From contig JAGHTW010000067.1 in NCBI GenBank assembly GCA_018065145.1, positions 3,067 through 67,066 on the forward strand: a DNA stretch of 64,000 nucleotides, written 5' to 3'. Below are positions 9,465 through 64,000 of the stretch, piece after piece. The notes beneath the pieces are model-generated. The model did not search any database and had not been told where the DNA came from. It saw nothing but the letters and a program-made list of their open reading frames with translations. Positions within the stretch are counted from its first letter, which is position 1. Each line of letters starts with the position of its first letter. Both the position numbers and the translations under genes were made by a program. This DNA comes from Candidatus Prevotella equi. Its GTDB lineage: Bacteria > Bacteroidota > Bacteroidia > Bacteroidales > Bacteroidaceae.

Positions 9465-9466
9465 GC

Positions 9467-9591: not shown

Positions 9592-9592
9592 A

Positions 9593-10381: not shown

Positions 10382-10435
10382 TGTATAATTCATAAATTGT
10401 AATATTTTTAATATAATCATAAAAAACACATCACT

Positions 10436-13651: not shown

Positions 13652-13670
13652 TAATTAATGATTAATAAGT
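13643..13670. repeat. four heptads (AATAATT-type) filling the nqrC-nqrD spacer
   Basis: agtaatt aataatt aatgatt aataagt abuts the ATG at 13671. Confidence 0.75.
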
Positions 13671-14285
13671 ATGGCAAACATTAAAATAAAAGAGGTTTTC
13701 ACACAGCCGCTGAGTTTTATGAATCCTGTACTCGTGCAGGTGCTCGGTATCTGTAGCGCGCTCGCTGTTACTTCACAGTTGAAGCCTGCGCTCGTCATGT
13801 GTATCGCCGTGACAGTCATCACTGCTTTCTCCAACCTCATCATTTCGTGCCTTCGCAATACAGTGCCTAACCGCATACGTATCGTAGTGCAGCTCGTTGT
13901 CGTTGCTGCCCTCGTTACCATTGTCAGCCAGGTGCTCAAGGCATTTGTATATGATGTGAGCGTTGAGTTGTCTGTATATGTGGGACTTATCATCACCAAC
14001 TGTATCCTCATGGGACGCCTTGAGGCTTTCGCTATGGCAAATAAGCCTCTGCCTTCGTTCATCGATGGTTTGGCTAACGGCCTTGGCTACGGCATCATCC
14101 TTGTTATAGTAGGTGCAGTACGTGAGTTCTTCGGCAGAGGTTCACTACTCGGCTTCCAGATTATCCCTGACGCAGTATATGACTTCGGTTATATAAATAA
14201 TGGTATGATGACAATGCCTGCCATGGCGCTCATCCTCATCGGATGTGTCATCTGGATACATAAAGCATATTTCGTAAAGGACTAA
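13671..14285 (+). CDS. nqrD: Na+-NQR subunit D
   Basis: 204 aa, RnfE/NqrD-like, with six TM helices. '[17 protein letters not shown]'. Confidence 0.9.
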
Positions 14286-28043: not shown

Positions 28044-28091
28044 GTTTATATTCGTTTTGTGGATTATTACTTTTTGGTCATTGCCCCTTCG

Positions 28092-29660: not shown

Positions 29661-29687
29661 ATTAACGATTTAGCAAGCAAATGCATG

Positions 29688-30662: not shown

Positions 30663-30708
30663 GATTATATTATTTTAATAATGTACGGTTGCAATATGTG
30701 TTATTTCT

Positions 30709-32166: not shown

Positions 32167-32208
32167 TGTTTAGCGTTATATTTTATCTGGTTAAATTTTT
32201 TCTTCGTG

Positions 32209-44787: not shown

Positions 44788-44888
44788 CTCGCAAACCGCT
44801 TTTAAACCTAATTTTATGTTAATACGTCACAAAAATAGTGAACCGTATCTACGACCGTAAAATACAAACAAGAAAAAACTATAAAACT

Positions 44889-48916: not shown

Positions 48917-48924
48917 TAATTTTG
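48917..48924 (+). promoter_or_regulatory. -7 promoter box (TAATTTTG) for the pilus-like cluster
   Basis: Exact match. The first downstream ATGs are at 48949 and 48976. Confidence 0.5.
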
Positions 48925-48975
48925 CACCCGAATTCAAGTTATCAATTGATGCAAAATATTTATTACATACTTAAA

Positions 48976-50403
48976 ATGCATTTCCGCGGTTATATGGGAA
49001 TGCTGCTTTTGCTATTATTTATGATGCCTGCCGCTTCATTACGCGCGCAGGTGTTCGACAATAGCAGACAGGTTGACACCTTGTCGATTGCTGAACGTAT
49101 CTCTATACGTACGAACCTCGTGGATTGGGGACTGACAGTTCCTAATATCGGCGTGGAGTTTGACCTGCGTAAAGAGAACTGGAACCGTTATGCTGTAGGT
49201 ATAAACCTGAGATACCGTCCACGTACTTCGGGTACTTATGTGCGTCCTTTCGTCTTCAACCTTTTTGAAGCAACGCTGGAAGGTCGTCACTACTGGCATG
49301 AGCGCAAGGCGGAGCCAAGCGGATACCTGAAGCGTCATCGCCACTGGATTGACAAGGTTTTCTCTTGCCGTACTATGATGCCAAGTCACCCACGATGGAT
49401 TTTCTATCGCGGAGGATATGTGTCATACTCTGACTTCTCAATGCTTCTTGGAAACAACGGCTGGCAGGGTCAGGCTATTCTTGCCGGTTTCACTTGGGGT
49501 TTCATAAAGCCTTTCGTGGCTTTCCAGAATGGTAACAGCATTGACCTTGAGTTTGGCTTCTCTGCTGGTATCGGTGTTAACAAGTACGACAACTATACCA
49601 TTAACGAATACACCAACTGCTATCCTCGTACTGGTACACACGGATGGGGCTTTATTCCTTATCCTGTAGTGCGAGAGATACGTGCCGGTTTCGTATATCG
49701 CCTCGGCAACTATCCTATCCAGAAGAAGTATCGCTGGCGCTATGACGTGGATATGGATTATCGCAACAAGCGTGACTCAATATACAATGCTTGGCTTGCT
49801 GCTCGTGAGCAGAAGTACATACGCGATTCCATCTATAAGGTGGTGGCACAGGAATTCAAGGTGTTGTATGACTCATGTGTTGACAGCCGCCATAAGATGG
49901 AACAGGATGATATTGATGCTAAGGCACCAAAGCGTATCACACAGGATTCTATCAAGTTGCGTAAGCAGTTCATACGCGATTCTATCGCTGCACGCAAGGA
50001 TTCTATAGCTCGCGAAAAGGCTATAAAGGCTGGTAAGCCAATACCTGTGGGTAAATATACCGCTAAGGAACAGAAGATAAAGACAGCGAAGGCTTCTGCT
50101 GAAAAGGCAAAGGCTAAACAGGTTGCTAATCGTGATAAGGCGAAGATTGCTGCCATCAAGGCTAAAGCCGCTAAGGAAAAGGCTAAGACGGTGAGCGGAA
50201 AGACAACGACGGCTGCGTCAACGACAAATAATACTCGTGGCAATGCGAAGAAGGAAGAGGACGACAGCGCTGTAATGTCTGACAAGGAAGCCAAGAAGCT
50301 GTTGCAACAGCAGAAGGCTGAACGCGCGAAGGCTGCCGCTGAACGTGCAAAGGCACGAATAGCTGCACAACGAGAGGCAAGAAAAGCAGGAACAAAGAAA
50401 TAA
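48976..50403 (+). CDS. DUF3575-type outer-membrane barrel protein with a ~170-aa Lys/Ala-rich C-terminal tail
   Basis: Signal peptide '...LLLLLFMMPAASLRAQ'. 'ISIRTNLVDWGLTVPNIGVEFDL' is the DUF3575 N-terminal signature. The tail is 'KASAEKAKAKQVANRDKAKIAAIKAKAAKEKAK...'. The track start at 48922 (TTG) overlaps the -7 box, and ATG 48949 is an alternative start. Confidence 0.65.
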   Translation: MHFRGYMGMLLLLLFMMPAASLRAQVFDNSRQVDTLSIAERISIRTNLVDWGLTVPNIGVEFDLRKENWNRYAVGINLRYRPRTSGTYVRPFVFNLFEATLEGRHYWHERKAEPSGYLKRHRHWIDKVFSCRTMMPSHPRWIFYRGGYVSYSDFSMLLGNNGWQGQAILAGFTWGFIKPFVAFQNGNSIDLEFGFSAGIGVNKYDNYTINEYTNCYPRTGTHGWGFIPYPVVREIRAGFVYRLGNYPIQKKYRWRYDVDMDYRNKRDSIYNAWLAAREQKYIRDSIYKVVAQEFKVLYDSCVDSRHKMEQDDIDAKAPKRITQDSIKLRKQFIRDSIAARKDSIAREKAIKAGKPIPVGKYTAKEQKIKTAKASAEKAKAKQVANRDKAKIAAIKAKAAKEKAKTVSGKTTTAASTTNNTRGNAKKEEDDSAVMSDKEAKKLLQQQKAERAKAAAERAKARIAAQREARKAGTKK

Positions 50404-50420
50404 TAAGGAGGAATAGCAAC

Positions 50421-51719
50421 ATGATAAAAGCAATAAAACATAATATGTTCATGAGCCTCCTGGCTATCGCTGCGGCGGCTACGACGATGACATCGTGCGT
50501 GAAAGAGCAGTTGTGCTTTGACACCGAAGGCGATGTAAGCATGTATGACTCACTCATGCAGGATCATCTCGATACATATCACGTGGGAAAGGTCAACTTC
50601 AAGTATGATTGGAATAACATCACAAGCCACGGAATGCAGGTGCCTGACTCTATGTTCGTGCTCGTTGACCGCGTGATATTCCAGAATGTAGGTTCCTTGG
50701 CTTTGGAGACAAAGACGGAGACAGGTAAGATTCTTGCTCCATTCACGAAGATACGTCCTGCCGTGAATAGTGGAATAAAGGATTTTGATATCTATGCCGG
50801 AGAGTATAAGTTCCTCACTGTGAACTACAGTTCTACGAACTTTAACTACGCAGAGATGCAGAATCTTATGACAAAGACGCTCTCTAACCACATGAGCAAC
50901 GTCAGCATAGCGTATAACTCTTATAAGAAAGGTCAGAAAAAGAACGGAGAACTGATTCTTGATGAACCTGAGAATTGGATGGACGCAAACCAATATACAC
51001 GTCCTGATGGTACTCCTTGCAGCTTTGTACTCACTGAGTCTGCTCCTGTCGTGATAGACTCTACGACAATCACTAAGTGGGAGGCTAACGAGACTAAGAC
51101 GATTAACTTCAAGCCAACGACCATCACTCAGAACATAGATATATTCTTTGATATCAAGAAGGATGTGTCAGAACTGAGCTTTGAGGTGGATTCGGTATAT
51201 GCCGTTATCTCTGGTATTCCTCATAGGGTGAATCTTGGAACGGGAGGACTTGACATCTCGGATACAGACAAGATGATTTTCCGCACTGATCTGGTGAATC
51301 CGAATGTCGTTCCTGACGAAAAGACACAGCCAGTGAAGGATACTCCAAGCAATACGAAGGTAAGATGTTTCAAGAACGTAACGGTACTGGGCATCGTGGA
51401 GAATGAACTCGCAGAGACGGATTTGTACGCAGGACCGGGCGTCATGCAGCTTATAATATATAATAAGGTGTATAACACTGACGGAACAGTGACATACAGA
51501 ACCGTTACCGGTATGGTGAATATACATAAGAGTCTGTTGAATGCAAAGCTGCAACTCTTCGATCCAGACTTGCAACTGTATCACAAGACACGTGAGCATT
51601 CTGACCTATATATCTCTATTGACGTGACACTGTCAAAGAGCAATATCCTTGGAACGGATGATGGAGGTATCGTAAAGTGGAATGAGCAGACAATACCAAG
51701 TGAGTTCGAAATATACTAA
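50421..51719 (+). CDS. lipoprotein, FimB/Mfa2-like (putative type V pilus anchor/terminator subunit)
   Basis: Lipobox 'TTMTSC'. 'INFKPTTITQNIDIFFDIKKD...VYAVISGIPHRVNLGTGG' resembles the Mfa2-family pattern. No S-R-[GA] maturation site is present. Confidence 0.45.
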   Translation: MIKAIKHNMFMSLLAIAAAATTMTSCVKEQLCFDTEGDVSMYDSLMQDHLDTYHVGKVNFKYDWNNITSHGMQVPDSMFVLVDRVIFQNVGSLALETKTETGKILAPFTKIRPAVNSGIKDFDIYAGEYKFLTVNYSSTNFNYAEMQNLMTKTLSNHMSNVSIAYNSYKKGQKKNGELILDEPENWMDANQYTRPDGTPCSFVLTESAPVVIDSTTITKWEANETKTINFKPTTITQNIDIFFDIKKDVSELSFEVDSVYAVISGIPHRVNLGTGGLDISDTDKMIFRTDLVNPNVVPDEKTQPVKDTPSNTKVRCFKNVTVLGIVENELAETDLYAGPGVMQLIIYNKVYNTDGTVTYRTVTGMVNIHKSLLNAKLQLFDPDLQLYHKTREHSDLYISIDVTLSKSNILGTDDGGIVKWNEQTIPSEFEIY

Positions 51720-51742
51720 AGCAGAATAAGAAACAAGATATA

Positions 51743-53023
51743 ATGAACAAGGTTAGCAAGAATATATGGATGGTGCTGTTGATGGTGGGAGCAACAATGT
51801 TGTTCTCATGCAGTAGCGAATATCCTGAGCTGAAATATACTCCTGATAATGCGGAGAGCCTTAACAAAGAGGTGCGAGGTACTATTGCTATAACACCTAC
51901 ATTGAACTATAGTTCTATCTTCTTTGTCAGTGCTTCACGCGGTAGCGGTGCATTCGATAGAGATCATTATCTCAGCGACTTTGAACAGCATTATATGAAC
52001 GCAAAGTTCTATGTGCTCGGATTCCGCAGAGCTGCTGCTGAGGGAGAAATGTCACAGCCTGTGGATTTCACACAGTTGATGAACAAGAACACTAATCCTG
52101 ACCGTAAGGACTGTCTCTTCAGTACTACAAAGGTCATGCTCGGAGAACTTGAACAGCCAGGAAAGCTGATGATGCCTATGGATTTCACCGGAGCATTGAA
52201 GTATATGGACGATGAGACCGGTACGAAAGAGGATGAGCGTATCCTATGGAATGAGGTCTATGGCACTACGGGATATGACTTCTACGGCTACTATTACGAT
52301 GACGCTAAGATTAATAGCATAAAGACTACCGAGGAAAAGGTAACGATGGACGTAACAATCGATGGTACACAAGACTTGATGATTGGTATGGCACCTGAGA
52401 TTACAAGGTCTTTGCTCGAACAGCATTATCCTGGCGTGGTGGAACAGCAGACAAAGGATAAGATTCTTGCATACGGCGAAGGCGCATACACTACCTTTGG
52501 TGCAGGACATAGCGTACAGCCAAAGATTGATATGAAGCATTGTCTGGCTAGACTGATGGTTTATTGTAATCAGGTAGATGCTGCTGCACAGGTAAAAGTG
52601 AAGGACGTTAGACTGAAGGCGCGCACTAATGGCATCATGACTGTTGCTGCAAGAAATCACGAGGAGGTAGGATTTACTCCAACGGGTGGATATTCTGTGT
52701 TGCATCTGCCTAATATCAATGTGCCACTGGAATATAAGAAGGATGTATTGCTCGGTCCTGGCGTGATGATTCCTGAAGAGGATCAGTATGAACTGGAACT
52801 GGTGTTCGAAGAGACATACTTCAAGGACGAGGCTGGTACACAGACAGAGACAAAGACAAGTGTCTATCCTTTCGTGATAAAGATGGATAATGATACGTTC
52901 CATGCAGGTACTTCATACTATATTAAGTTGACGATGTACGGCGTAACGGGTGCTGATATTGACGTAAGCACTAACGAACACTGGATGGACGGTGGTACTA
53001 TTGATATCGGTACACAGGATTAA
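51743..53023 (+). CDS. fimbrillin-like lipoprotein (type V pilin class), paralogue 1
   Basis: Lipobox 'MLFSC' (Cys23) and 'VSASR|GS' at Arg66. 'IDGTQDLMIG' and 'MKHCLARLMVY' are shared with the three downstream paralogues. Confidence 0.55.
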   Translation: MNKVSKNIWMVLLMVGATMLFSCSSEYPELKYTPDNAESLNKEVRGTIAITPTLNYSSIFFVSASRGSGAFDRDHYLSDFEQHYMNAKFYVLGFRRAAAEGEMSQPVDFTQLMNKNTNPDRKDCLFSTTKVMLGELEQPGKLMMPMDFTGALKYMDDETGTKEDERILWNEVYGTTGYDFYGYYYDDAKINSIKTTEEKVTMDVTIDGTQDLMIGMAPEITRSLLEQHYPGVVEQQTKDKILAYGEGAYTTFGAGHSVQPKIDMKHCLARLMVYCNQVDAAAQVKVKDVRLKARTNGIMTVAARNHEEVGFTPTGGYSVLHLPNINVPLEYKKDVLLGPGVMIPEEDQYELELVFEETYFKDEAGTQTETKTSVYPFVIKMDNDTFHAGTSYYIKLTMYGVTGADIDVSTNEHWMDGGTIDIGTQD

Positions 53024-53092
53024 TGCTTAACGGCTATCGTGTTACTGTTAACGACTATTGTAAAGAATTTAGAAGATAATAAAACAAGATAT

Positions 53093-54376
53093 ATGATGAA
53101 GAAATCGTTTTTCTACACCTTCGCCATTGTTGCCGCAATGACGAGTTGTTCTTCGCAGGAGGATTCTTTGGAAACTTCTTTTGAGACGTCAAATGATGTG
53201 CTGGCATTGAATATTGCTGCACCATCGCTGACTGAGCAATCAAGAGGAACAGGAACTATTGGTACTACGGATCCTAACACAAACCAGTGGCAGGGACAGA
53301 GAGTAAAGGTTTACATGTTCAACAAAGGTACGCTGACACCAACAAAGCTCGAGGACGTAAACGGACAACTGAAGCCAATCTTTGATAATACAGAGGTGTT
53401 TGCTCCAAATGGTGTGGCTGTAGGACCTGTATCAAAGACCAATGGTACACGTTCGTATTATCCTATCAGTGGCGCAAGCGACTTCTGGGGATATCGTACT
53501 GACGGAGCAGAAAGCGGTCAGCCTATAGCATCTGCTACAAATATCGCTGTGCCATTCGAAATCAATGGCTCACAGGATATCATGGTGGGAAAGACTGACA
53601 ACAGTAAGATTACTGCGGTAGGAGAGGAATATCTCTATTCTGCTAAGTCTGCTCGTCTGGGTGTCGTGCCAGAGTTGGATTTCAAGCATCTCCTTACACG
53701 TCTCACATTCTCTATCAGAGCATACGAGGATATGACAGAATACAGTGACCAGGCAGAGAAGATTCCTGAGGAAATGATAATGATTAACAACAACCAGTCA
53801 TTGGTTGACAAGGACTTGGACTTCTGTCTGCGCGAGTTCGGCGTGAGAAAGGTTTCTCTCGGTGTATTCGTGGATTCTATTATGATTGAATCGGCTACTA
53901 CAGGTAAGGTTATCGTTGCTTATACCGCTGCTGATGCTGACAAAGAGCAGAAGATAGTATGGGATAATACAAAGGTAAGAAACCTCACACTGATGGATCG
54001 CCCTGCTATTGACGGCGTGCCACAGCCTACAGAACCATTGAAGAAGATGGAGATGTCGATCGTACCACGTGGCGTTCATAAACCACTTGGTGAGGCTTTG
54101 TTGCTGAAGCCTGCTGAAAGATATAACATCCGTGTGGCTATGCACCAGTATAAGCAGGACGGATTGAATGACGGCAAATATACAAGAAAGGCTGTTCTCT
54201 GGCCAAATAGCGAACAGACACCACACACAATAGACCTTTCATCATTGCCAGGAAAGGGTGCTGCGGGATATTCTTACAACATTCGTCTCGGCGTCAGTGG
54301 TCTGGAAGAGATTCGTCTCTACGGAGTATTGGAGAAATGGGAAGACGGCGGTATCGGCAATAAGGATATAGAATAA
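53093..54376 (+). CDS. fimbrillin-like lipoprotein, paralogue 2
   Basis: Start at MMKKS. Lipobox 'AMTSC' (Cys19), beta-strand 'VLALNIAAP', then 'QSR|GT' (Arg51). 'INGSQDIMVG', 'FKHLLTRLTFSI'. Confidence 0.55.
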   Translation: MMKKSFFYTFAIVAAMTSCSSQEDSLETSFETSNDVLALNIAAPSLTEQSRGTGTIGTTDPNTNQWQGQRVKVYMFNKGTLTPTKLEDVNGQLKPIFDNTEVFAPNGVAVGPVSKTNGTRSYYPISGASDFWGYRTDGAESGQPIASATNIAVPFEINGSQDIMVGKTDNSKITAVGEEYLYSAKSARLGVVPELDFKHLLTRLTFSIRAYEDMTEYSDQAEKIPEEMIMINNNQSLVDKDLDFCLREFGVRKVSLGVFVDSIMIESATTGKVIVAYTAADADKEQKIVWDNTKVRNLTLMDRPAIDGVPQPTEPLKKMEMSIVPRGVHKPLGEALLLKPAERYNIRVAMHQYKQDGLNDGKYTRKAVLWPNSEQTPHTIDLSSLPGKGAAGYSYNIRLGVSGLEEIRLYGVLEKWEDGGIGNKDIE

Positions 54377-54418
54377 GAAAAACGAAAGCAAGAGTAATAA
54401 GAATAAATAAGGAGAATT

Positions 54419-55873
54419 ATGAGAAAAATAATTCTTAAAACGACAATAGCAGTTGTTGCAATGGCAGGACTCGCCGCATGTACCGACAGTGATATCATAA
54501 GCACTGCCGAGACAATGTCGGTTGAAGAGGCTATGCAGCCAAGCGACGTGGAGATAGTGCTCGGAGCAACAGCACAGAATATGACGTCAAGGGCAAGCAT
54601 AGAATCTGATGGCGTTGAGCATCCGTTCTTCAGAACAAACAAAAACGATACGCTCGGTGTCTTCGCACTTGCTACTGGCATCATAGAGAATAACGCAAAG
54701 TACTATGGTGACGTGACCATTAAGTGGGCAGGCGACTGGGTGGAAGAAAAGAATAAAGAAGGTAAGGTGATAGGCAAGAAGCATGTCTTCAATGATGCTT
54801 ACTCCGTATATCTAAATAATGTTAGAGCCGGTGTGACATACGTCTCTAACTCGTTCGGAGCTACTCTCGGTTCACGCATCGCATGGATGGATACAAAGAA
54901 CGGAAAAGTGTATTATCCTCTGGGCAGTATGCACAAATATTCCTTCTATGCGTATAACCCACGCGTGGATTCCATCAATTATAGCGCTGACAGAATCGTT
55001 GCAGTGATGAGAAACCTCAAGGGATGCGAGGATGTAATATGGGGCGCTTGTGAACCAGCAATGACAGATCCTGTATGGAATCTCGCTTATAGCGCAGACT
55101 ACTTCCGCCAGAAGGTGACAATGGATCGTTATGATGAAACGAAGAGTGAGACGACATTCAACTTCCAGCACAAGATGATGAGACTCACATTTGAAATACT
55201 TCCTGGTGCAGAGGATGAGTCATTGCCTCCAATGGAGCGTAACTACGATGAGGCTTATAAGACAACGGTTCACAGCATAAGTATCATCAATGCACCTGAT
55301 GAGGTACAGCTCGTTGTTGCTGATAAGACTCTTGGAGCTGAAAACATGCAGGGGGCGCTGACATACAGCTCTGCAAGAAACAAAAAGTATTATCTGAAAG
55401 AGAGAAGAAAGAATATAAAAGGCGAGACAGTGCTTGACTCCCTGCTCGCTCCTGTTAGCCCAAGAGCTAAGGATCCTCTTTATGTAGAGGGAAACAGGGA
55501 TGAGACAAACGTACCTGATACGATAAAGATTGGCGAGGGTATCATTCTTCCTGCATTGAATGACGTGGATAGAATGAATAATCCTTACAAGATGCAGTTA
55601 CTCCTGGAATATCCAAAGGGTACTTATCAGGTGAAGACATTCACACTCAATGCACCTTACGGTAAGTTTGAACCAGGAATGTCCTACAATCTTAAACTGA
55701 AGATATACAGTCCTAAGGATATTTCAATCAGTGCTACAGCATCACAGTGGCAACTGTTGAATGATTCCCAATATAACTCTTATGTTGATCCTTTGAAGGA
55801 GCAGACAGAGAAGAGAATAGAGGAAGAAAAGAAAAAGAAAGAAGAGGAAGAGAAGAAGAAATCCTTATTATAA
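54419..55873 (+). CDS. fimbrillin-like lipoprotein, paralogue 3 (Glu/Lys-rich C-terminus)
   Basis: Lipobox 'LAAC' (Cys21), 'VEIVLGATA', 'TSR|AS' (Arg58). 'NLKGCEDVIWG', 'FQHKMMRLTFEI'. The tail is 'EEEKKKKEEEEKKKSLL'. Confidence 0.55.
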   Translation: MRKIILKTTIAVVAMAGLAACTDSDIISTAETMSVEEAMQPSDVEIVLGATAQNMTSRASIESDGVEHPFFRTNKNDTLGVFALATGIIENNAKYYGDVTIKWAGDWVEEKNKEGKVIGKKHVFNDAYSVYLNNVRAGVTYVSNSFGATLGSRIAWMDTKNGKVYYPLGSMHKYSFYAYNPRVDSINYSADRIVAVMRNLKGCEDVIWGACEPAMTDPVWNLAYSADYFRQKVTMDRYDETKSETTFNFQHKMMRLTFEILPGAEDESLPPMERNYDEAYKTTVHSISIINAPDEVQLVVADKTLGAENMQGALTYSSARNKKYYLKERRKNIKGETVLDSLLAPVSPRAKDPLYVEGNRDETNVPDTIKIGEGIILPALNDVDRMNNPYKMQLLLEYPKGTYQVKTFTLNAPYGKFEPGMSYNLKLKIYSPKDISISATASQWQLLNDSQYNSYVDPLKEQTEKRIEEEKKKKEEEEKKKSLL

Positions 55874-55924
55874 TAGATAATCAACAACAAGAAATAATAA
55901 CAAATAAAATAAACCCAAAGAATT

Positions 55925-57307
55925 ATGAAAAAAGCAATTCTTAACTTAGCCCTTTGCGCTGTAGCTCTCGCTCCTGTCGTTTCTTGTACCAACGAGGAGA
56001 TGACAAGGGAGGAAAAGCAGCAGGCTGCAATCACTGAAATGCTCACCGAAGGCATGAAGCCAAGTGCAGAGAACATTTCACTCATGGGAAGCAACAGTAC
56101 TGCTGATGAGTCTCGTGCTCCTATTTACACTAATGACAATGACAAGGGTCAGTTCTTTGAAACAAAGGACCACTCTATCGGTATCTTTATGCTCGCAAAG
56201 AAAGTGTGTGATGAGAATATCTCTGACGGCAAGTACAGCGAGTATGCTCCTTATAAGTATCTTAAGGTGGACTGGACATCACCAAAGGATGCTGAAAATC
56301 CACAGTATAGCGACGTATGGTCTGTATATCTGAAGAATGTACGTGCTAAGGCTGACTATGTGAAGAATGCTGCTGATGAAATCGTTGGCACAAAGCTTAA
56401 CTTCCATCCTGGTGACCTCGCACCAACAGACAGCCGTCGTTTCTATCCTATGGGTGCTTATCATAACTACTGGTTCTATGGTTATGCTCCATTCGACAAG
56501 GCTGAGATAAGCGCTAAGCCTGCACGTATGTCTGCATTGTTCAAAGACCTTAATGGTACTCAGGACGTTATATACGGTATCGGTAAGCCTGATATCACTG
56601 ATACTCATGCTACATGGGCTTACAGTGCAAAGTATTTCCGCTTCTCAGAGAACCGCGACCCTGTAACAGACGTTCCTGATTCTGTAACAATGAAGTTCTC
56701 TCACAAGATGATGATGGTGAGACTGAAGATTACTGCTGGTGGTACTCCAATCAATTCTACACTCCCTGACGTGGATCGTAACTACAGTGGCGCTTACGCT
56801 ACTACTGTTGAGAAGATCAACTTCACAAATGTTCCTTCTGTAATGGAGCTTATCCTTGCTGATAACGATGATAATACAAAGGATGGTACATTCCTTCCTG
56901 CTGAGGGCGCTACACGTACAAAGGTGTATTCTGTTAATGTAAATACGAATCCTAAGCCAAAGTATCCTAACTACGAAATAGGAAAGGATACTAACGTTCC
57001 TGATACTATTGAGGTAGGAACCGTTCTTCTCCCTGTAATAACAGGTCTTAAGGAGAATCCTTACATGATTTCTGTATCATTGAAGTATCAGGGCATAAGC
57101 CTTCCTATGCTTGTTCCAATGCGCTTACCTGTTGCTGTTGACGAGTATAGCAATGATTACTTCAAGCCAGGTTATATCTATGACGTGGTGCTGAAGATCT
57201 ATCAGCCAGAGGATATCAACCTCAATGCTACTCTTAAGCCATGGGTTGAGTCAACAACATCACCATTCATCTCTCCTGATGGTGACGGAACATTCCCAAT
57301 ACACTAA
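55925..57307 (+). CDS. fimbrillin-like lipoprotein, paralogue 4
   Basis: Lipobox 'VVSC' (Cys21), 'ESR|AP' (Arg64). It is colinear with paralogue 3, for example 'DLNGTQDVIYG', 'FSHKMMMVRLKI' and 'DRNYSGAYATTVEKINFTNVP'. Confidence 0.55.
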   Translation: MKKAILNLALCAVALAPVVSCTNEEMTREEKQQAAITEMLTEGMKPSAENISLMGSNSTADESRAPIYTNDNDKGQFFETKDHSIGIFMLAKKVCDENISDGKYSEYAPYKYLKVDWTSPKDAENPQYSDVWSVYLKNVRAKADYVKNAADEIVGTKLNFHPGDLAPTDSRRFYPMGAYHNYWFYGYAPFDKAEISAKPARMSALFKDLNGTQDVIYGIGKPDITDTHATWAYSAKYFRFSENRDPVTDVPDSVTMKFSHKMMMVRLKITAGGTPINSTLPDVDRNYSGAYATTVEKINFTNVPSVMELILADNDDNTKDGTFLPAEGATRTKVYSVNVNTNPKPKYPNYEIGKDTNVPDTIEVGTVLLPVITGLKENPYMISVSLKYQGISLPMLVPMRLPVAVDEYSNDYFKPGYIYDVVLKIYQPEDINLNATLKPWVESTTSPFISPDGDGTFPIH

Positions 57308-57325
57308 TATGACAAGCGATGCTTT

Positions 57326-57357
57326 GTGTGGCTGTCGCAATAACGCGGCAGCCGCAC
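57326..57357 (+). terminator. possible hairpin/attenuator between the two halves of the pilus-like cluster
   Basis: gtgtggctg / cagccgcac forms a 9-bp stem with one G-U pair, plus an inner cgc/gcg pairing. No clear U-tract follows, so it may be a processing or stability hairpin rather than a terminator. Confidence 0.35.
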
Positions 57358-57490
57358 AAGACATCATACTTACAGAGTTATTCATACTTTTATAAATCAT
57401 ACCCCGCCTTCACAAACCAACAACGTTGAGTTCCGTGTGACAATGTTGCATGGGAAAAGAAAATAAAGCCCAACGACAAAACGATAAGAT

Positions 57491-58051
57491 ATGAGAAAAA
57501 TCCTTCTTACATTCGCAATGATAATGATGTTTACCGCCAGCACGAAAGCACAGATGTTAGCGGTAAACACCGACGTAGCCATGGATGCGATCACTGCACC
57601 ATCGCTCGGTGTGGAATTAGTGTTAGGTAAGAAGTCTTCACTGAACATCAACGCACTCTATGGTCCTAACATCCTCGGAACAAAGGCGAAGGTTGTTGCC
57701 ATACAGCCAGAGTGGCGTGTTTATATATCAGGACGTCCTATGTATCATCATTACTTTGGTGTTGTAGGACTCTTGACACAGTACAAGTTTAAGTTGAAGA
57801 ATAAGTGGCGTGATGGTGATGCTGCAGGTATAGGCGTGTCATACGGTTATGTGTTGCCAGTGACACCACGTCTGCTCTTTGATTTCCATACATCAGTAGG
57901 CGGTATCTTCTATCACCAGAAAGAGTATGCCGTTGGTGATGATTATGACGCACATTACACCAACGAGGAGGGTTATCCTAAGGCAAATGCAAAGGGTTCT
58001 ATTATACTTCCGCTACGTTTAGGTGTTTCACTGACATATATTCTTAAGTAA
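57491..58051 (+). CDS. DUF3575-type outer-membrane barrel protein (second copy, no tail)
   Basis: Signal peptide 'MRKILLTFAMIMMFTASTKAQ'. 'LAVNTDVAMDAITAPSLGVELVLGKKSSLNI', 'IQPEWRVYI' and 'GIGVSYGY' fit the DUF3575 pattern. Confidence 0.65.
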   Translation: MRKILLTFAMIMMFTASTKAQMLAVNTDVAMDAITAPSLGVELVLGKKSSLNINALYGPNILGTKAKVVAIQPEWRVYISGRPMYHHYFGVVGLLTQYKFKLKNKWRDGDAAGIGVSYGYVLPVTPRLLFDFHTSVGGIFYHQKEYAVGDDYDAHYTNEEGYPKANAKGSIILPLRLGVSLTYILK

Positions 58052-58075
58052 TCATATATTATATCAATTATCGGG

Positions 58076-60610
58076 ATGAGACAAACCTTATTATATATTA
58101 CGTTACTTCTTAGCTTCGTTATTGCAGGTAATAAGACCTTTGCGCAGAATGAGGCTCTTGATGCCAATGTTCATGTGAACTTTGAAACGGCAGGCGAGAA
58201 GGAATACCGCACCGTGCAGTATGCTTTGTTCAAGACAGAGAACAAGGCAAACGTTGTGTTGCAGGAACTGGAAAAGGCTATAGCACTGCAGCGTGGTGAT
58301 AATGGTGCAATAGAACTTGACGCATGGACCAATGCGCTCACAAAGAACAAGATAAAGTTCCGTACCTCTCGTGGTAACGGTGACTTTAAGGTGCACGCAT
58401 ATCCTGATATGGCGATACTCGTTAGCACTTATTTGCCTGACGATGAGTTGACGATTGAAGATGCGCGCTTTGCTGTTATCGTATTGAAGCCACAGCAGGT
58501 TGAATACGAACACATCTTTAAGGTAAAGATGGATAAGGGTGCTCATAGCATTAGCAATGTGGATGTCATGGGTACTAACCGTGATACCATCAGCATTCAG
58601 GCTGCTCCTGCTATCGATGATGGTAAGAATATGTACTTCAAGATACACGTAGAGCTTCCTGCTGGTTACGGAAATGACCGTGGTCGTCTTGTAGTACAGC
58701 CAAAGTCTGTTGATTGTCAGACAGAGGATACTATAGACTTTATCAGTGGTCTCGTCATGGAAGGACCAGAGTATCACAAGGTTCAGAACAAGCAGATGCT
58801 CTTTGACTACCTCCTTCATGATAAGGTAGCATATGCATATATGGATAAGCCAATGTATTCCGATGAGAAGGTTTACATTGACACGACGCTCGTATATACC
58901 AAGCCTGACCGTAGAAAGTCATACAAGATACCTTATACGGTCCAGATAGCAGACTTCAACCATATCTATTTCACACGTTCTGCAGCGACAGGTTCTTGTA
59001 ATTCGAAGAATATCTTTAAGTTCCTTGACCTCGGTCTCGCGTCAGCAGATATGGATCCGGAAGAGTTCCGTATTGATGCGGAGAGTAACTATGATACGAA
59101 GAATCAGGACTTACGTCTGAAGTTCATCGTTGGTAAGTCAGAACTTACTAACGACTCTACAAACGTAATACAGTTGAATGACCTCGTTAAGGAGTTGCGC
59201 TCATACGGAGACCAGCTCATGGAGGTGAATATTGAAGCTACAGCATCACCTGAAGGCGGTTTGGAGTCTAACCGTAAGCTCGCAGCAGATCGTACCCGCG
59301 TTGCTGTCGGTAAGGTTCGCCAGATTCTTGGTAAGGTAGATATCGCCTTCCATACAGCTCCTCCACGTGTATGTACATGGGAAGATGTTGCAAAGGAGTT
59401 GACATTCGACGGTCGTGAGGACCTTGCAACACTCGTTCTTCAGAACATGGGACCTAACGGCTATGGCGGTGATGCTGCCATACAGCAGATAGAAGGCTAT
59501 AACGAATTCATTGAACCAGTGCTTCAGCGCTTGCGTATGATGCGTGTCACATATCGTTATGAGCGTGAACATGTCATGGGCGCTGATGAAGTGATAGAGG
59601 CTTATTATAATCGTAAGCAAGACTTGTTGCAAGGACGTGGCAAAGACCTCTCAGATGGTGACTATTTCAACCTCTTTGTTCACATCAAGGACTCCCTGGA
59701 GCTTGATACAATCACCATGCTTGCATACAAGCACGTTACAAAGCGTGGCGGTTATGAGCAGGTGAAGTTCTCTATGTACGTTGCTAACCGTATGGCTGTG
59801 CTCAACCAGAAGCTTGGAAAGCCAGACTCACGCGTCCTTGATCCATTCATCAACAAGCGTTTGCGTGCCGTTACAACAAAGGAACACGGCGATCGTGCAC
59901 AGAAGAACCGCCGCGAGGTACTCATTAATCAGATTATAACATACTTCCAGTTGGAGGAACGTGATAGCGCCTTGTCCTTCTGTGACTATTGGTTCGGAAA
60001 GGATGACGACCCGAAGGTAGAACGATTGAAGAAATACATCAAGTTCAAGGAAGGCTTTGTGAAGTATGCAACACATCAGTTGACTCCAGAACAAGAGAAA
60101 GAAGTGCTCGACGCAATGGAGTTTGTCATCTCATGTGCTCCAGACAACAAGGCAGTACTCTACACTGAGGCGCGAGACATCTTGAATGTGCCTAATGCAG
60201 TAGCGCAGAAACTTGTCTCACAGATGGCGGATGACAGTCCGAAGAAATGGTATCTGCGTGCTATCCTTGAAGGCGACCTGGAGGAAAAGAAACTTGCAGA
60301 GAGACAGCCAGAGACATATATCCCTAACTATCTCGCATTCTTCCATCACAGTTTCGAATTGGAACCATCATACAAGTGGCTCTATTTCAATGACGGACAG
60401 ATAAGTGACCAGTTACGCGAGCGTTATAAGTATCGTAAGAAGGATATTCCTCGCTACCGAGATATGTTCAACAGCATGGTAGTGCTCAATGGTGCTGCGA
60501 AGACTGTTAATGAAGATGAGATAGAACTTAGCGGTGATGACGATGAACAAGAGTCAGACGCAGCTACAGACGACAACAATCCTGAGAATATAGACGAAAC
60601 AGGTAATTAA
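58076..60610 (+). CDS. large secreted protein with an OmpA-C-like ASPEG segment (DUF3868-like position), a helical C-terminal half and an acidic tail
   Basis: It has a signal peptide. 'VNIEATASPEGGLESNRKLAADRTRVAVGKV' parallels 'KISGYASPEGNAELNQKLSEKRAEAVKNI' of the bona fide OmpA at 39504. The C-terminus is 'SGDDDEQESDAATDDNNPENIDETGN'. Confidence 0.45.
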   Translation: MRQTLLYITLLLSFVIAGNKTFAQNEALDANVHVNFETAGEKEYRTVQYALFKTENKANVVLQELEKAIALQRGDNGAIELDAWTNALTKNKIKFRTSRGNGDFKVHAYPDMAILVSTYLPDDELTIEDARFAVIVLKPQQVEYEHIFKVKMDKGAHSISNVDVMGTNRDTISIQAAPAIDDGKNMYFKIHVELPAGYGNDRGRLVVQPKSVDCQTEDTIDFISGLVMEGPEYHKVQNKQMLFDYLLHDKVAYAYMDKPMYSDEKVYIDTTLVYTKPDRRKSYKIPYTVQIADFNHIYFTRSAATGSCNSKNIFKFLDLGLASADMDPEEFRIDAESNYDTKNQDLRLKFIVGKSELTNDSTNVIQLNDLVKELRSYGDQLMEVNIEATASPEGGLESNRKLAADRTRVAVGKVRQILGKVDIAFHTAPPRVCTWEDVAKELTFDGREDLATLVLQNMGPNGYGGDAAIQQIEGYNEFIEPVLQRLRMMRVTYRYEREHVMGADEVIEAYYNRKQDLLQGRGKDLSDGDYFNLFVHIKDSLELDTITMLAYKHVTKRGGYEQVKFSMYVANRMAVLNQKLGKPDSRVLDPFINKRLRAVTTKEHGDRAQKNRREVLINQIITYFQLEERDSALSFCDYWFGKDDDPKVERLKKYIKFKEGFVKYATHQLTPEQEKEVLDAMEFVISCAPDNKAVLYTEARDILNVPNAVAQKLVSQMADDSPKKWYLRAILEGDLEEKKLAERQPETYIPNYLAFFHHSFELEPSYKWLYFNDGQISDQLRERYKYRKKDIPRYRDMFNSMVVLNGAAKTVNEDEIELSGDDDEQESDAATDDNNPENIDETGN

Positions 60611-60627
60611 TATACCCACCCGTTATA

Positions 60628-62922
60628 ATGATGAAGATACAGACGAAAATATTTTTCATAGCATTCCTTACCATACTTCTCCCTTGCCTTACAGTAGGAG
60701 AGTGGGGTGGTAAGGCATGGAGTCTTCCAATAGACTATCGTGATATTGATCCGTTGGATACTCTTGATGAAGAGGATATAATAGCGTTGCGTGACACTTC
60801 TATGTTGACACGCCGTAACCTTGCAAAGGATACTGAGTCAGTCAATGCGCTGGACTATATCCTTAAGGATCGCTATTCTCCAAAGCATCAGTCTTTTGAT
60901 CATAAGTGGTACGACCATCTGTATGTTGGTGCAAGCCTTGGATTTGAGAAAATCAATCCACAGTCATCATCATACAAGTTCCGCACTATGACGCAGGTGG
61001 ACCTTCTTGTAGGTAAGCAGTTGGATAAGTACAACAGTCTTCGCCTTGGATTAGGTGGTGGCTGGGGTTATCAGCAGGATAAGAATCTCTGGTTGAAGCG
61101 TGCTTCCCTGAAGCTTGACTATATGTACAACCTCTCTACCTTCTTTGCTGGTTACAATCCTGCTCGCAGGGTAGAGGCATCGTTGCTCTTCGGTGTAGGA
61201 GCCAATTACTCTTGGATAAACAGTAGCGACAAGCAGTTTGCGCCAGAGGCACATTTCGGTGTACAGCTGAAGTGCTATACCGGTCCGCTTGGTACTATGA
61301 ACATAGAGCCTTACATCGGTATATCTTCAGACAAGATAGATATCTCTGGTAAGCGTAACTGGAGAGGCTATGATATCTTCTATGGTATCAATGTCAACTA
61401 TGCGTTCTATCTTGTTGACAACCTCTCAAAGGAGTCACGTCAGACACTTCTTGAGTCACGTATGGCTGGTGACCGCATGGTAGATCCAAAGACATTGGAT
61501 TCTTGGCGTACACCATGGTTCGTGGAATACTCTATGGGAATGGTGATGAGTCACTCTGACTACCTTGATTTCTCAAAGACCATGGGCAACCAGACCGCTC
61601 TCAGTGTTGGTCGTTGGCTCTCTCCTGCTATCGGTTTCCGTCTCTCTGCCGTTACCCGTGCAACGAAGTGGCAGCAGAACACCATCGATGCAACGAAGAA
61701 GAATGCTGCATACGTCAATAACTACAACTCACATTATGTCAGTGGCAGACTTGAAGCTCTCCTCAATCCATTCGGCTTCTTCAAGAACTTCAAGTGGGAT
61801 GCTCCATGGGGTGCATACCTAGCATTTGGTGGAGAGGTAGGTCAGCTGACAAAATACATGCCTTATGGCCGTATGAAGACAACAAGCGAGTCTTATGATA
61901 TCGGTGCACACTTCTGGTATGCTATCAGCGAAGACCTCCAGGCATTTATTGAGCCACGATTTACTCGCACTGTTTACACCATACCATATAGCAATGTAAA
62001 TATGCGCAAGATGTATGGCGACAACAATTTCGGTATTGACTTCGGTCTCACTATGCTCATACGTTCTGAGAAATACCATGACCTCTACGAGATGGACCAT
62101 ACTCAGAACTACACCTATCGTAACATTCGCGGTACCCGCGTAGGTGTTGCTGCTGGTCTCCCTGTATTCCAGAGACGTTATGACTACATAGGAAAGAATG
62201 CTCCAAACTGGAACGCTATGGCATTCGCCGAATACCGTTTCAATGAGCTTCACAGCGTTCGTGGTCAGGCAGAGCTGCTCACCAGCACAGGCAATGTATA
62301 TACCGGATACACCGATAAATATACAAATACATTGGGTAAGACCACTACCACCTCTCGTGAAGGCGTATGGAAATACCGTCGTAAGATGCTCCTTGCATCG
62401 CTCAACTACGAGGTCAGCCTGACAAACCTCTGCAGTGGTCGTCTGCGCGACCGTCGTTTCGAACTCGAAGCATTCGCTGGTCCAGCTGTAGGTGTTATCC
62501 TTTCTACCAATGCAAGCATCAATCCTGCAGAACCAATGGCCGATGGAGACCATATCCTTACAGCCAGCTATAAGGATAATAAGAAACCTATGGTGGGTCT
62601 TGACCTCGGTCTTAAGCTGAGCACACATATATGGAAGGGTATCTCCGTATTCCTTACCCCAACAGTATATATGCTTCACAGCAAGGAAGACATTCGCGGC
62701 CTCAATACTGTCAGCTTAGGTAACTTCCATCTATACCAGACTCTCAACGTTGGTGTGCAGTATAAGATAGGTAAGCTTCGCAGAAACCCAGAGGTTGTGC
62801 GCCGCATACACCAGCGCCAGGACCGTGACTGGAAGCATAAGCAGCTTGTACAGGAACAGAAGTATGCTGAGAAGCTTGCAGAGAAGCAGGCAAAGCGCAA
62901 AGCAAAATATTTCAGTAAATAA
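60628..62922 (+). CDS. 764-aa secreted beta-rich protein with three barrel-like modules and a basic C-terminal tail
   Basis: It has a signal peptide. Three ~200-aa segments of alternating amphipathic strands begin near 'LYVGASLGFEK', 'FVEYSMGMVMS' and 'RVGVAAGLPVF'. The tail is 'KHKQLVQEQKYAEKLAEKQAKRKAKYFSK'. Confidence 0.45.
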   Translation: MMKIQTKIFFIAFLTILLPCLTVGEWGGKAWSLPIDYRDIDPLDTLDEEDIIALRDTSMLTRRNLAKDTESVNALDYILKDRYSPKHQSFDHKWYDHLYVGASLGFEKINPQSSSYKFRTMTQVDLLVGKQLDKYNSLRLGLGGGWGYQQDKNLWLKRASLKLDYMYNLSTFFAGYNPARRVEASLLFGVGANYSWINSSDKQFAPEAHFGVQLKCYTGPLGTMNIEPYIGISSDKIDISGKRNWRGYDIFYGINVNYAFYLVDNLSKESRQTLLESRMAGDRMVDPKTLDSWRTPWFVEYSMGMVMSHSDYLDFSKTMGNQTALSVGRWLSPAIGFRLSAVTRATKWQQNTIDATKKNAAYVNNYNSHYVSGRLEALLNPFGFFKNFKWDAPWGAYLAFGGEVGQLTKYMPYGRMKTTSESYDIGAHFWYAISEDLQAFIEPRFTRTVYTIPYSNVNMRKMYGDNNFGIDFGLTMLIRSEKYHDLYEMDHTQNYTYRNIRGTRVGVAAGLPVFQRRYDYIGKNAPNWNAMAFAEYRFNELHSVRGQAELLTSTGNVYTGYTDKYTNTLGKTTTTSREGVWKYRRKMLLASLNYEVSLTNLCSGRLRDRRFELEAFAGPAVGVILSTNASINPAEPMADGDHILTASYKDNKKPMVGLDLGLKLSTHIWKGISVFLTPTVYMLHSKEDIRGLNTVSLGNFHLYQTLNVGVQYKIGKLRRNPEVVRRIHQRQDRDWKHKQLVQEQKYAEKLAEKQAKRKAKYFSK

Positions 62923-62930
62923 ATTGTAAG

Positions 62931-64000
62931 ATGACACATACAAAGTATTTCATTTCCCTTTTCGTCTTCGTTTTCGTCTTCGTACAGAACGTTTCGGCAC
63001 AGAAAGACCCTGATGCGGTACAGTCTGCCATGGCACAACTGATACACCATCAGTCCACCAATGCTGATACCATTGCGGTGGAGTTGTCCAAGCGCTTTAA
63101 GAAGAGTGCGCCGATGCAGGTAGCCCTTGCACGTGCGTACTATCGTAACAACGAACGTAGCAAGACACGTTATTATCTTGCCAAGGCAATGCAGGCAGAC
63201 GACAAGTATTCTCCAGCATACATCCTCTACGGAGATATGTATGGTGAGTGGGACATTGACTCTGCATGCTACTGGTTTGACAAGGCTATAGAGGCAAAGC
63301 CACGTGATCCTGACGGATATGTGCGCTATGCCAATGTGATGTCACGCCGAGACATGGACAAGGCAAAGGAGAAACTCGAGGAATTGCGTAAGGTTCTGCC
63401 ATCATACAACGTTGATGTTGAGATAGCATCCCTTTATAATAAGAAAGGTGATGACAAGTCTGCAGCAGAAGCTATGGCAGGTGTTGACCTTCGTTCACTC
63501 TCTATGAACCAGACAGCCCAGTACCTTCAGAACTGTTATTGGGCAAACAACGACGAGCGCGGTATCGAAGTTGCTAAGTTCGCTGTCAAGCGCTTCCCAC
63601 AGAACCGTGGTTTCAACCGTGTTTATTCTTGGTGTGCAGCCCGTTCCGGTTCTTATAAGGAAGCTATCGAACAGGGCGACAAGTGGTTTAAGAATACTCC
63701 TGTCGATTCTATCAACTCTATTGACCTCCTTACTATGGGCTCTGCCTATCTTGGAGAGGGCAATTATGACAAGGCATTCAGCTATTGGGAGCGCATCAAG
63801 TTCCTGAAGAATGACTACTTCGCACCACAGATGCGTGGACAGATCAACCGCCTTGTAAACGCACGCGTTGATGCACTGAAAGGAAATGGTGAGTATGACA
63901 ATGCAGCAGACCTTTACCGTCGCTTCGTTAAGGAATATCCAAGTGAGACAGACCCTGCATATCAGCTCTATTCACTCTCACAGATACACCGCGATGAGCA
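62931..64000 (+). CDS. secreted TPR-repeat protein, N-terminal part (3' end outside window)
   Basis: This ORF is absent from the supplied track because it has no stop in the window. My own translation is 'MTHTKYFISLFVFVFVFVQNVSAQKDPDAVQ...ALARAYYRNNERSKTRYYLAKAMQADDKYSPAYILYGDMY...', with helical 34-residue-type repeats. It starts 8 nt after the previous stop. Confidence 0.6.
   Translation, partial: MTHTKYFISLFVFVFVFVQNVSAQKDPDAVQSAMAQLIHHQSTNADTIAVELSKRFKKSAPMQVALARAYYRNNERSKTRYYLAKAMQADDKYSPAYILYGDMYGEWDIDSACYWFDKAIEAKPRDPDGYVRYANVMSRRDMDKAKEKLEELRKVLPSYNVDVEIASLYNKKGDDKSAAEAMAGVDLRSLSMNQTAQYLQNCYWANNDERGIEVAKFAVKRFPQNRGFNRVYSWCAARSGSYKEAIEQGDKWFKNTPVDSINSIDLLTMGSAYLGEGNYDKAFSYWERIKFLKNDYFAPQMRGQINRLVNARVDALKGNGEYDNAADLYRRFVKEYPSETDPAYQLYSLSQIHRDE

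Follow-up and report, generated by a model that had tools for sequence, protein, structure and literature searches.

A type V pilus locus of Candidatus Prevotella equi built around two uncharacterized protein families

Type V pili are the main adhesive fibers of Bacteroidia in the gut, the mouth, and the rumen. Here, we describe a type V pilus locus that is built around two uncharacterized protein families. The locus lies on a 64,000-nucleotide stretch of Candidatus Prevotella equi DNA (contig JAGHTW010000067.1, positions 3,067 to 67,066), referred to as the window. It consists of ten consecutive open reading frames (ORFs) on the plus strand, g1–g10, that extend from 48.9 kb to the window end. 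An initial annotation made from the sequence alone had proposed ten such genes with short spacers and one 183-nucleotide (nt) gap, and the ORF list agrees with it. The features of the locus are as follows.

48917..48924, plus strand: candidate Bacteroidetes-type −7 promoter box TAATTTTG upstream of g1 (match to TAnnTTTG)
48949..50403 (ORF from 48922), plus strand: g1, DUF3575-family outer-membrane barrel with a ∼218-amino acid Lys/Ala/Glu-rich C-terminal tail (Pfam)
50421..51719, plus strand: g2, DUF5119-family lipoprotein, lipobox MTSC, first gene of the cassette (sub-threshold Pfam match, orthologs)
51743..53023, plus strand: g3, fimbrillin-like lipoprotein, lipobox LFSC, candidate maturation site SASR↓GSG (homology to g4)
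53093..54376 (ORF from 53039), plus strand: g4, fimbrillin-like lipoprotein, lipobox MTSC, candidate maturation site EQSR↓GTG (Mfa_like_1, NF038041)
54419..55873, plus strand: g5, fimbrillin-like lipoprotein, lipobox LAAC, candidate maturation site MTSR↓ASI (Pfam Mfa_like_1)
55925..57307, plus strand: g6, fimbrillin-like lipoprotein, lipobox VVSC, candidate maturation site DESR↓API (paralog of g5)
57318..57365, plus strand: RNA hairpin directly 3′ of the g6 stop codon (folding, shuffles)
57491..58051, plus strand: g7, short DUF3575 outer-membrane barrel of 186 amino acids (Pfam, full model covered)
58076..60610, plus strand: g8, secreted multi-domain protein of 844 amino acids with an OmpA_C-like domain (AlphaFold, Foldseek)
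60628..62922, plus strand: g9, protein of 764 amino acids with three tandem 8-stranded β-barrel modules (AlphaFold, hhalign)
62931..64000, plus strand: g10, secreted tetratricopeptide repeat (TPR) protein that runs past the window end (Pfam TPR)

The spacers between the ten genes measure 8–51 nt (at most 69 nt if g4 begins at its ATG), with the 183 nt between g6 and g7 as the single exception. The mechanical ORF of g4 starts with GTG at 53039, and the ATG at 53093 yields a normal lipoprotein signal peptide. Translation of g1 probably begins at the ATG of 48949 or 48976 rather than at the TTG at 48922 of the mechanical ORF, because the −7 box at 48917–48924 argues against the latter. As annotated, all ten proteins carry an export signal: g2–g6 possess lipoboxes, a cleavable signal peptide with AQ at its end is found in g1, g7, g8, and g10, and the N terminus of g9 is a hydrophobic helix.

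The locus recurs in many related genomes. We searched one genome per species with an alignment of g8 and recovered 79 loci, almost all from Prevotella, Palleniella, Leyella, Xylanibacter, and unnamed metagenome-assembled genomes (MAGs) of Prevotellaceae or Bacteroidaceae. The ORFs of these loci were classified by tblastn and then by hidden Markov models, and the architecture counts are approximate. The arrangement g1–g7–g8–g9–g10 is found in ∼26 loci, g1–g2–g7–g8–g9–g10 in ∼20, and g1–g2–g3/4–g3/4–g5/6–g7 onward in ∼17; the ten-gene form (g1–g2–g3/4–g3/4–g5/6–g5/6–g7 onward) is found in ∼10 loci including the window. The genes between g1 and g7 thus constitute a cassette of zero to five lipoprotein genes, with none in ∼35% of the loci and g2 alone in ∼27%. 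The cassette is always located between g1 and g7, and its genes keep one order throughout: a DUF5119 gene, two genes of the g3/g4 type, and one or two of the g5/g6 type. Most often retained is g2, which is the sole cassette gene in ∼20 loci. Where the cassette is missing, g1 and g7 are direct neighbors, −8 to 190 nt apart.

The remaining genes are far more constant. Whether pilins are present or not, g1 is kept in nearly all related loci, g7 lies directly upstream of g8 in essentially all of them, and g10 follows g9 in most. The conserved unit is therefore g1, g7, g8, and g9, usually with g10, and not all ten genes. This arrangement recurs across 79 loci and hence beyond chance, so that the proposed tie between type V pilins and extra barrel, OmpA-like, and TPR components is borne out by synteny. 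The locus had also been called atypically organized; it is instead a common, conserved architecture of the Prevotella lineage, present in at least 79 species-level genomes.

Three loci illustrate the range of variation. In L080, which lies beside a ribosomal-protein operon, g1 and g7 are followed by a fused g8::g9 gene and g10, with no cassette. L081 contains g1, g7, g8, and a g9 with approximately five barrels. L083 reproduces the window architecture with g1, g2, four pilin genes, g7, two g8 paralogs in tandem (9388–13966), and g9. In both L081 and L083, g10 is absent after g9. The g8 homolog of L083 is remote (E-value of 2e-79 with the g8 profile, local equivalent 1e-87), and the presence of the cassette at the same slot even there indicates that the cassette is tied to the core. 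Two core copies per assembly are found in MAG JAZRXS01 (L047 and L054) and MAG JAKSLI01 (L056 and L062); in each of these assemblies, one copy comes with g2, and the second is without a cassette.

Core and cassette differ in their rate of change. At the nucleotide level, the window shares 66–75% identity with L001, L004, and L023 in the core and no homology in the cassette. At the protein level, g8 is 74% identical to its counterpart in L001, whereas the cassette proteins are only 28–34% identical. Judged by these comparisons, a fast cassette within a slow core is typical of surface-antigen genes that are swapped or diversify while their flanks stay conserved.

The two large products of the core, g8 and g9, had been noted as lacking a counterpart that could be named. 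Indeed, the sequence of g8 has no match in Pfam (E ≤ 10), NCBIfam, or the PDB, and neither has that of g9 in the same three resources. Literature searches on DUF3575, DUF3868, DUF5119, and Prevotella type V pili turned up neither the architecture of the locus nor the g8 and g9 families. An exhaustive profile search assigns 242 clusters (50% identity) to the g8 family at E ≤ 1e-30. A word-indexed search with g8 found 78 proteins, and the remote members were reached only by the exhaustive search. Family members carry no annotation other than "hypothetical" or "OmpA family" protein.

We predicted the structure of g8 with AlphaFold from 48 homologs (mean pLDDT 79.5). From the N to the C terminus, the model comprises an α/β domain, a β-sandwich, an OmpA_C-like domain (residues ∼335–500, pLDDT ∼70–88), a helical repeat domain (residues 503–803), and a disordered acidic tail (residues 806–844) with a net charge of −14. 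The OmpA-C-like segment suspected in the initial annotation is clearly recognizable as a fold: Foldseek against the PDB returned the C-terminal domains of OmpA_C, OprF, and PorE with a probability of 1.0 and target-normalized TM-scores of 0.52–0.73 (4rha, 3td3, 5u1h, 4erh, and 6top). Two remote homologs of g8 also reach the Pfam OmpA family (PF00691) by sequence, P0219 with 28.0 bits and P0207 with 27.9 bits (cut-off 27.2), and a third, P0277, scores 23.1 bits. No match to DUF3868 (PF12984) was found for g8 at E ≤ 10, nor for any of 10 remote homologs. The acidic tail is a conserved trait, with a median charge of −11 over the last 40 residues, and 32 of 47 sequences contain SG[DE].

Alternative folds for g8 did not hold. 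Matches to α-2-macroglobulin and GH2 either had a root mean square deviation above 30 Å or covered one β-sandwich, and they were read as a generic Ig-like domain. Between residues ∼200 and 310, g8 homologs share an invariant set consisting of Arg-204, Gln-208, Pro-209, Cys-214, Asp-218, Glu-229, Gly-230, Tyr-233, His-234, Gln-237, Asp-249, Lys-276, Tyr-283, Ser-307, and Cys-308. This conservation suggests a specific binding or catalytic site or, alternatively, a disulfide between Cys-214 and Cys-308. A cysteine protease, which Cys-214, His-234, Asp-218, and Asp-249 had brought to mind, was put aside, as the region is predicted to be a β-sandwich and the two cysteines may form a disulfide.

The AlphaFold model of g9 (pLDDT 84, predicted TM-score 0.75) shows three times eight long strands, and the three modules are homologous to each other (hhalign 97, 98, and 88%), in line with the three-module barrel that had been proposed. 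A few g9 homologs bear the Pfam families OMP_b-brl, PF13505, or PF13568. A single 22-stranded barrel was considered and dismissed, because Foldseek gave only generic hits (TonB-dependent transporters and OmpG) with a TM-score of ∼0.13. The number of modules is not fixed: g9 proteins with approximately five modules occur in L030–L033, L035, L066, and L072 (∼1111 amino acids) as well as in L081 (12217–15972, 1251 amino acids). The g8::g9 protein of L080 (P0079, 1356 amino acids) is a natural fusion, indicating that g8 and g9 are functionally linked. At its C terminus, g9 carries a basic helix (residues 721–763, net charge +10). Within the family, basic tails with charges of +10 to +19 are confined to the nearer half.

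Both DUF3575 barrels that had been predicted, the first with its tail, are supported by Pfam. With a cut-off of 21.1 bits for DUF3575 (PF12099), g1 scores 32.6 bits (E = 6e-8), and g7 scores 108.7 bits (E = 2.6e-31) and covers the model in full. According to hhalign (98%), the barrel of g1 is a homolog of g7. In contrast, hhalign detected no homology between the DUF3575 domain of g7 and the barrel modules of g9 (probability of at most 12%), and a PDB search with the g7-family profile returned no relative of solved structure. The ∼218-residue tail of g1 has a net charge of +28 and no Pfam match even at E ≤ 10, and among the orthologs its length varies from 67 to 322 residues. The oppositely charged tails of g8 on the one hand and of g1 and g9 on the other suggest electrostatic or TPR–peptide contacts.

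The assignment of g10 as a TPR protein rests on several Pfam families (TPR_14 with 51.4 bits and E = 7e-14, TPR_16 with 43.2 bits, and TPR_6 with 35.2 bits). TPR_Slam is matched only at E = 0.023 with 15.6 bits, far under the cut-off of 35.2. Orthologs of g10 are ∼490–560 residues long, and the gene also follows the fused g8::g9 in L080.

The cassette itself consists of one DUF5119-family lipoprotein and four candidate pilins. The four had been annotated as paralogous pilin-like lipoproteins, which homology searches support to different degrees. The best score against Pfam Mfa_like_1 (cut-off 27) is that of g5 (42.3 bits, E = 1.2e-10); g6 stays just under the cut-off with 26.4 bits, g4 reaches 20.5 bits (E = 5.4e-4), and g3 has no direct Pfam match. 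The N terminus of g4 matches the Mfa1 family NF038041 of NCBIfam weakly (E = 2.9e-6). However, g3 and g4 are related by blastp (E = 2e-6), g5 and g6 are 30% identical (E = 3e-58), 26 of 40 members of the g3/g4 ortholog set match Mfa_like_1, and the g3/g4 profile matches that of g5/g6 from end to end (hhalign 99.95%, E = 5e-38). The lipobox cysteine is invariant in the alignments of both families. A PDB search with the g5/g6 profile finds 4k4k (E = 6.9e-4) and 3t2l (E = 4.3e-3), each a Bacteroides "putative cell adhesion protein," whereas the g3/g4 profile finds nothing and single-sequence searches with g4 and g5 nothing meaningful. On this basis, g3–g6 are probably fimbrillin-like type V pilins, g5 by direct match and g3, g4, and g6 by transitive homology.

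All four window pilins and most of their orthologs contain the motif [ST]R[GAS] 30–47 residues past the lipobox cysteine. TRG[TS]G is conserved among g3 orthologs, and TRGTGTVG is nearly universal among g4 orthologs. In one clade (L001, L005, L014, and L026), every cassette pilin has Lys instead of Arg at the aligned site, for example SSKGTG for TRGTG and SKAAI for TRASI. Such a coordinated replacement is expected for a site that is read by a protease specific for basic residues, and the alignments imply a clade-wide shift in the specificity of the processing protease. The C terminus of g5 (55780–55873) is an alternating-charge tail, KRIEEEKKKKEEEEKKKSLL, with a short EEEKKKK end; the C terminus of a pilin normally provides the donor strand, and a charged tail at this position is thus unusual.

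The first cassette protein, g2, is of a different kind. The label "Mfa2-like" that it had received was not upheld: g2 has no match to Mfa2 (PF08842) or the FimB/Mfa2 family, to NCBIfam, or to the PDB by single sequence or profile. Its only affiliation is to DUF5119, which g2 itself matches below threshold (17.6 bits) and 15 of 23 orthologs also match (best E = 2.2e-8). Beyond the signal peptide, it shows no detectable similarity to the profiles of g3–g6, and the R[AGST] maturation motif is not conserved in its family. A lipobox without a maturation site would be compatible with a lipid-retaining anchor or base subunit but is not specific to that role. Both the conservation of [ST]R[GAS] in the pilins and its absence from g2 agree with the known cleavages of FimA at Arg-46 and Mfa1 at Arg-49, in the loop that follows the N-terminal anchor strand, and with anchor subunits that lack a cleavage site (PMC13655056). 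The coordinated replacement of Arg by Lys also fits cleavage of the clostripain type, as described for Bacteroides (PMC12632263).

With regard to transcription in Bacteroidetes, whose promoters differ from the sigma-70 type, the −7 box upstream of g1 is the only intergenic plus-strand match to TAnnTTTG between 48.7 and 64 kb; none lies in the gap between g6 and g7. This gap contains the hairpin that had been proposed. Its core stem of 16 bp pairs 57323–57338 with 57345–57360, and the gap folds with −51.9 kcal/mol, corresponding to a z-score of −4.6 and unmatched by any of 200 shuffles. The stem includes three G·U pairs on the plus strand, indicating that the hairpin acts at the RNA level in the sense orientation. 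It is not followed by a U run, and no Rfam family was found across 48.7–64 kb, the hairpin included. Strong hairpins of unrelated sequence occupy the same position in L023, L045, L048, L049, L051, L055, L057, L064, and L067, so that a hairpin follows the last pilin gene in ten lineages including the window. These recurring hairpins before g7 are GC-rich with stems of 15–17 bp. By contrast, the closest pilin-bearing relatives (L001–L014, L026, and L028) lack a hairpin and have gaps of 56–78 nt. The element may be an attenuator or an mRNA-stabilizing structure of the type common after abundant pilin genes.

Several known systems resemble parts of the locus. The fim cluster of Porphyromonas gingivalis (fimX–pgmA–fimA–fimB–fimC–fimD–fimE) opens with fimX and pgmA, the latter encoding an outer-membrane protein, and both genes are dispensable for the export and polymerization of FimA (PMC3436787). 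In strain W83, the accession of a DUF3575 protein (Q7MT57) is two from that of FimB (Q7MT55) (PMC12937337), and a DUF3868 protein of ATCC 33277 is PGN_RS00830 (PMC13055991). Going by this adjacency of accessions, fimX may be the DUF3575 gene and pgmA the DUF3868 gene. Similar to the locus described here, the fim cluster is a type V pilin operon behind two non-pilin envelope genes, and its pilins are lipoproteins matured at an arginine (in the window, a predicted site). In contrast to fim, the window pilins lie between two DUF3575 genes and not downstream of an accessory pair, the cassette is optional and opens with a DUF5119 lipoprotein instead of a stalk pilin, g8 lacks the DUF3868 signature and is much larger, and the triple-barrel and TPR proteins are additional.

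In Bacteroides thetaiotaomicron, BT4233–BT4234 (DUF3868 and DUF3575) lie near the Mfa1-type gene BT4227 (PMC10434189). Such Bacteroides pairs likewise consist of a small DUF3575 barrel gene with a larger secreted partner directly behind it and are linked to fimbrillin-like lipoprotein genes. They differ in that g8 shows no match to DUF3868 even at E ≤ 10, that only genomes of the Prevotella lineage yielded members of the g8 and g9 families, and that the DUF3575 gene is doubled in the window, with one copy bearing a long charged tail.

The core also recalls OmpA and OprF, as it combines 8-stranded barrels (g1, g7, and the g9 modules) with the OmpA_C-like fold of g8 (target-normalized TM-scores of 0.6–0.73 to 4rha, 3td3, and 5u1h), and the g8::g9 fusion joins both blocks in one chain. 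Unlike in OmpA and OprF, the blocks reside on separate genes and in reversed order in the fusion, there are five barrel modules per locus, g8 adds β-sandwich and helical domains, and the canonical pocket Asp appears not to be conserved. A comparable logic is found in PorP–PorE of the T9SS (type IX secretion system), where an outer-membrane barrel is paired with a periplasmic partner composed of a β-sandwich, TPR or helical repeats, and an OmpA_C-like domain as peptidoglycan anchor; the C-terminal domain of PorE (6top) aligns to g8 with a Foldseek probability of 1.0 and a target-normalized TM-score of 0.52. There is, however, no sequence homology to PorP/SprF or PorE, and the cargo encoded in the window is lipoproteins and not T9SS C-terminal-domain proteins. 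Slam of Neisseria is alike in concept only, with a periplasmic TPR domain and an outer-membrane barrel linked to the surface lipoproteins that it serves. Slam is a single 14-stranded barrel and not homologous to the proteins of the window, the faint TPR_Slam match of g10 being the sole link.

We give even chances to the reading that the core is a platform of several outer-membrane barrels, tethered to peptidoglycan, which houses an exchangeable cassette of type V pilins and serves the filament as base or organizer. The locus would then comprise two evolutionary layers under joint transcription, an envelope module that is conserved in the Prevotella lineage (g1, g7, g8, g9, and usually g10) and a hypervariable cassette of zero to five lipoprotein genes. 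The pilins would cross the inner membrane through Sec, be lipidated at the lipobox cysteine, travel to the outer membrane through Lol, and flip to the surface, where a protease specific for basic residues would cleave them at [ST]R↓[GAS] and polymerization would proceed by strand exchange. The core barrels would form the platform in the outer membrane, g8 would tether it to peptidoglycan, and TPR and charged-tail contacts would provide cohesion, with g8, g10, and the basic tail of g1 placed in the periplasm. Such a platform would be the base or organizing site for the filament or for whichever lipoprotein the cassette supplies, and the hairpin after the last pilin gene would partly uncouple abundant pilin expression from the downstream core.

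A number of observations weigh against this platform. Peptidoglycan binding by g8 is plausible. However, g8 itself scores no Pfam OmpA match, and in a manual alignment to E. coli OmpA, an invariant Ser-391–Pro-392–x–Gly-394 (with Glu-393 in the window) replaces the canonical pocket Asp. The motif TD...NxxLSxxRA binds the diaminopimelate of peptidoglycan through its conserved Asp and Arg; the NxxLAxxR motif of g8 retains Asn-399, Leu-402, Ala-403, and Arg-406 as invariant residues. Furthermore, the ∼35% of loci that have no gene between g1 and g7, among them the pilin-free L080 near the ribosomal operon, imply that the core has a function independent of locally encoded pilins. The promoter call is weak, as TAnnTTTG occurs 50 times across the window versus ∼40 expected and is thus not enriched. 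Finally, the hairpin and the 183-nt gap could be a genuine operon boundary.

The last point leads to the possibility of two independent adjacent operons, a pilus operon (g1–g6) bounded by the hairpin and, unrelated to it, an envelope operon (g7–g10). The strong stem-loop right after g6 within the 183-nt gap, the comparable hairpins in many other loci, and the occurrence of g7–g10 without pilins would fit. The initial annotation had itself raised this division, and the part concerning pilin-free g7–g10 stands. The part concerning unrelated operons does not, since g1 always accompanies g7–g10 and the cassette always lies between them, so that the conserved unit crosses the supposed boundary even in pilin-less loci. 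As, in addition, the hairpin has no U-tract and is missing from the closest pilin-bearing relatives and the g6–g7 gap has no promoter-box match, we consider two operons very unlikely. Unlikely, too, is a core that serves as a general complex for outer membrane–peptidoglycan tethering or envelope integrity, unrelated to pili, with the cassette hitchhiking at a recombination-tolerant site between g1 and g7. The ∼26 loci with a core but no cassette would be explained in this way, as would the housekeeping neighbors (rodA on either side in many loci and the ribosomal operon in L080), the combination of barrels and an OmpA_C-like domain as an OmpA in pieces, and the slow evolution of the core relative to the cassette. 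Random hitchhiking, however, is hard to reconcile with a slot, an order, and families (DUF5119 and then Mfa_like_1) that are invariant even in remote relatives; DUF3575 genes are linked to pilins in Bacteroides and P. gingivalis as well, and the paralogous core pairs in some genomes count against a single housekeeping complex.

In a further reading, g1 and g7–g10 would be a machine dedicated to exporting type V pilins and related surface lipoproteins across the outer membrane and to assembling them, in the manner of Slam with neisserial surface lipoproteins or of an usher with chaperone-usher pili. How these pilins cross the outer membrane had been regarded as unsettled in the initial annotation, and their surface sorting is still ascribed to "an unknown lipoprotein sorting mechanism" in a 2026 paper (PMC13655056). 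The lipoprotein cargo genes keep one position inside the module even among deeply diverged loci, TPR and barrels together recall Slam despite the faintness of the TPR_Slam match, and two core copies in some genomes are what cargo-specific machines might show. We nevertheless regard such a machine as unlikely, because lone 8-stranded barrels are too small for a protein-conducting pore, the cargo genes are missing from about one-third of the loci, fimX and pgmA are dispensable in P. gingivalis (PMC3436787), and the family was found only in genomes of the Prevotella lineage, yet type V pili span the Bacteroidia. Barrel size, cassette-less loci, and the dispensability of fimX and pgmA also mean that the core is probably not an essential pilin translocon. 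Likewise unlikely is a version in which a peptidoglycan-anchored core is dedicated both to placing type V pilins and related lipoproteins on the surface and to basing the filament, with cassette-less copies serving pilins that are encoded elsewhere in the genome.

The locus provides defined candidates for how pilin lipoproteins reach the surface and for what holds the fiber in the envelope, namely the uncharacterized g8 and g9 families, the two DUF3575 barrels, and the TPR protein, whose genetic linkage to an exchangeable pilin cassette extends over more than 70 species. The g8::g9 fusions, the cassettes of 0, 1, 4, or 5 genes, and the cassettes with Arg-to-Lys replacement constitute natural experiments. 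The locus is directly testable in cultured carriers, among them Leyella stercorea DSM 18206 (L057, full architecture), Xylanibacter muris, Palleniella muris, and Prevotella sp. MGM1. If the core were a sorting machine, it would fill the step of the "unknown lipoprotein sorting mechanism"; even as a general tether, it would represent an OmpA-like system with multiple barrels that is new for a lineage dominant in the gut and rumen.

Elsewhere in the window, a complete T9SS core operon (porP/sprF, porK, porL/gldL, porM/gldM, and porN/gldN) is found on the minus strand at 26943–33186, as had been annotated, and its porK encodes an FGE-sulfatase-like protein. This operon and the pilin locus are physically unlinked. 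The gene preceding the locus, rodA (FtsW/RodA family, 47303–48760, minus strand), is a recurrent neighbor of the module. Among L004–L034 and L015–L024, one group of loci has a divergent rodA upstream of g1, and a second group has it downstream of g10 and codirectional. The adjacency may reflect a link to cell-wall synthesis or merely conserved local synteny. Further upstream, a family 11 rhamnogalacturonan lyase (44838–47060, plus strand) contains a ∼95-amino acid low-complexity insertion rich in Gly, Gln, Arg, and Met at residues ∼545–640, which divides the Pfam match to RGL11_C in two.

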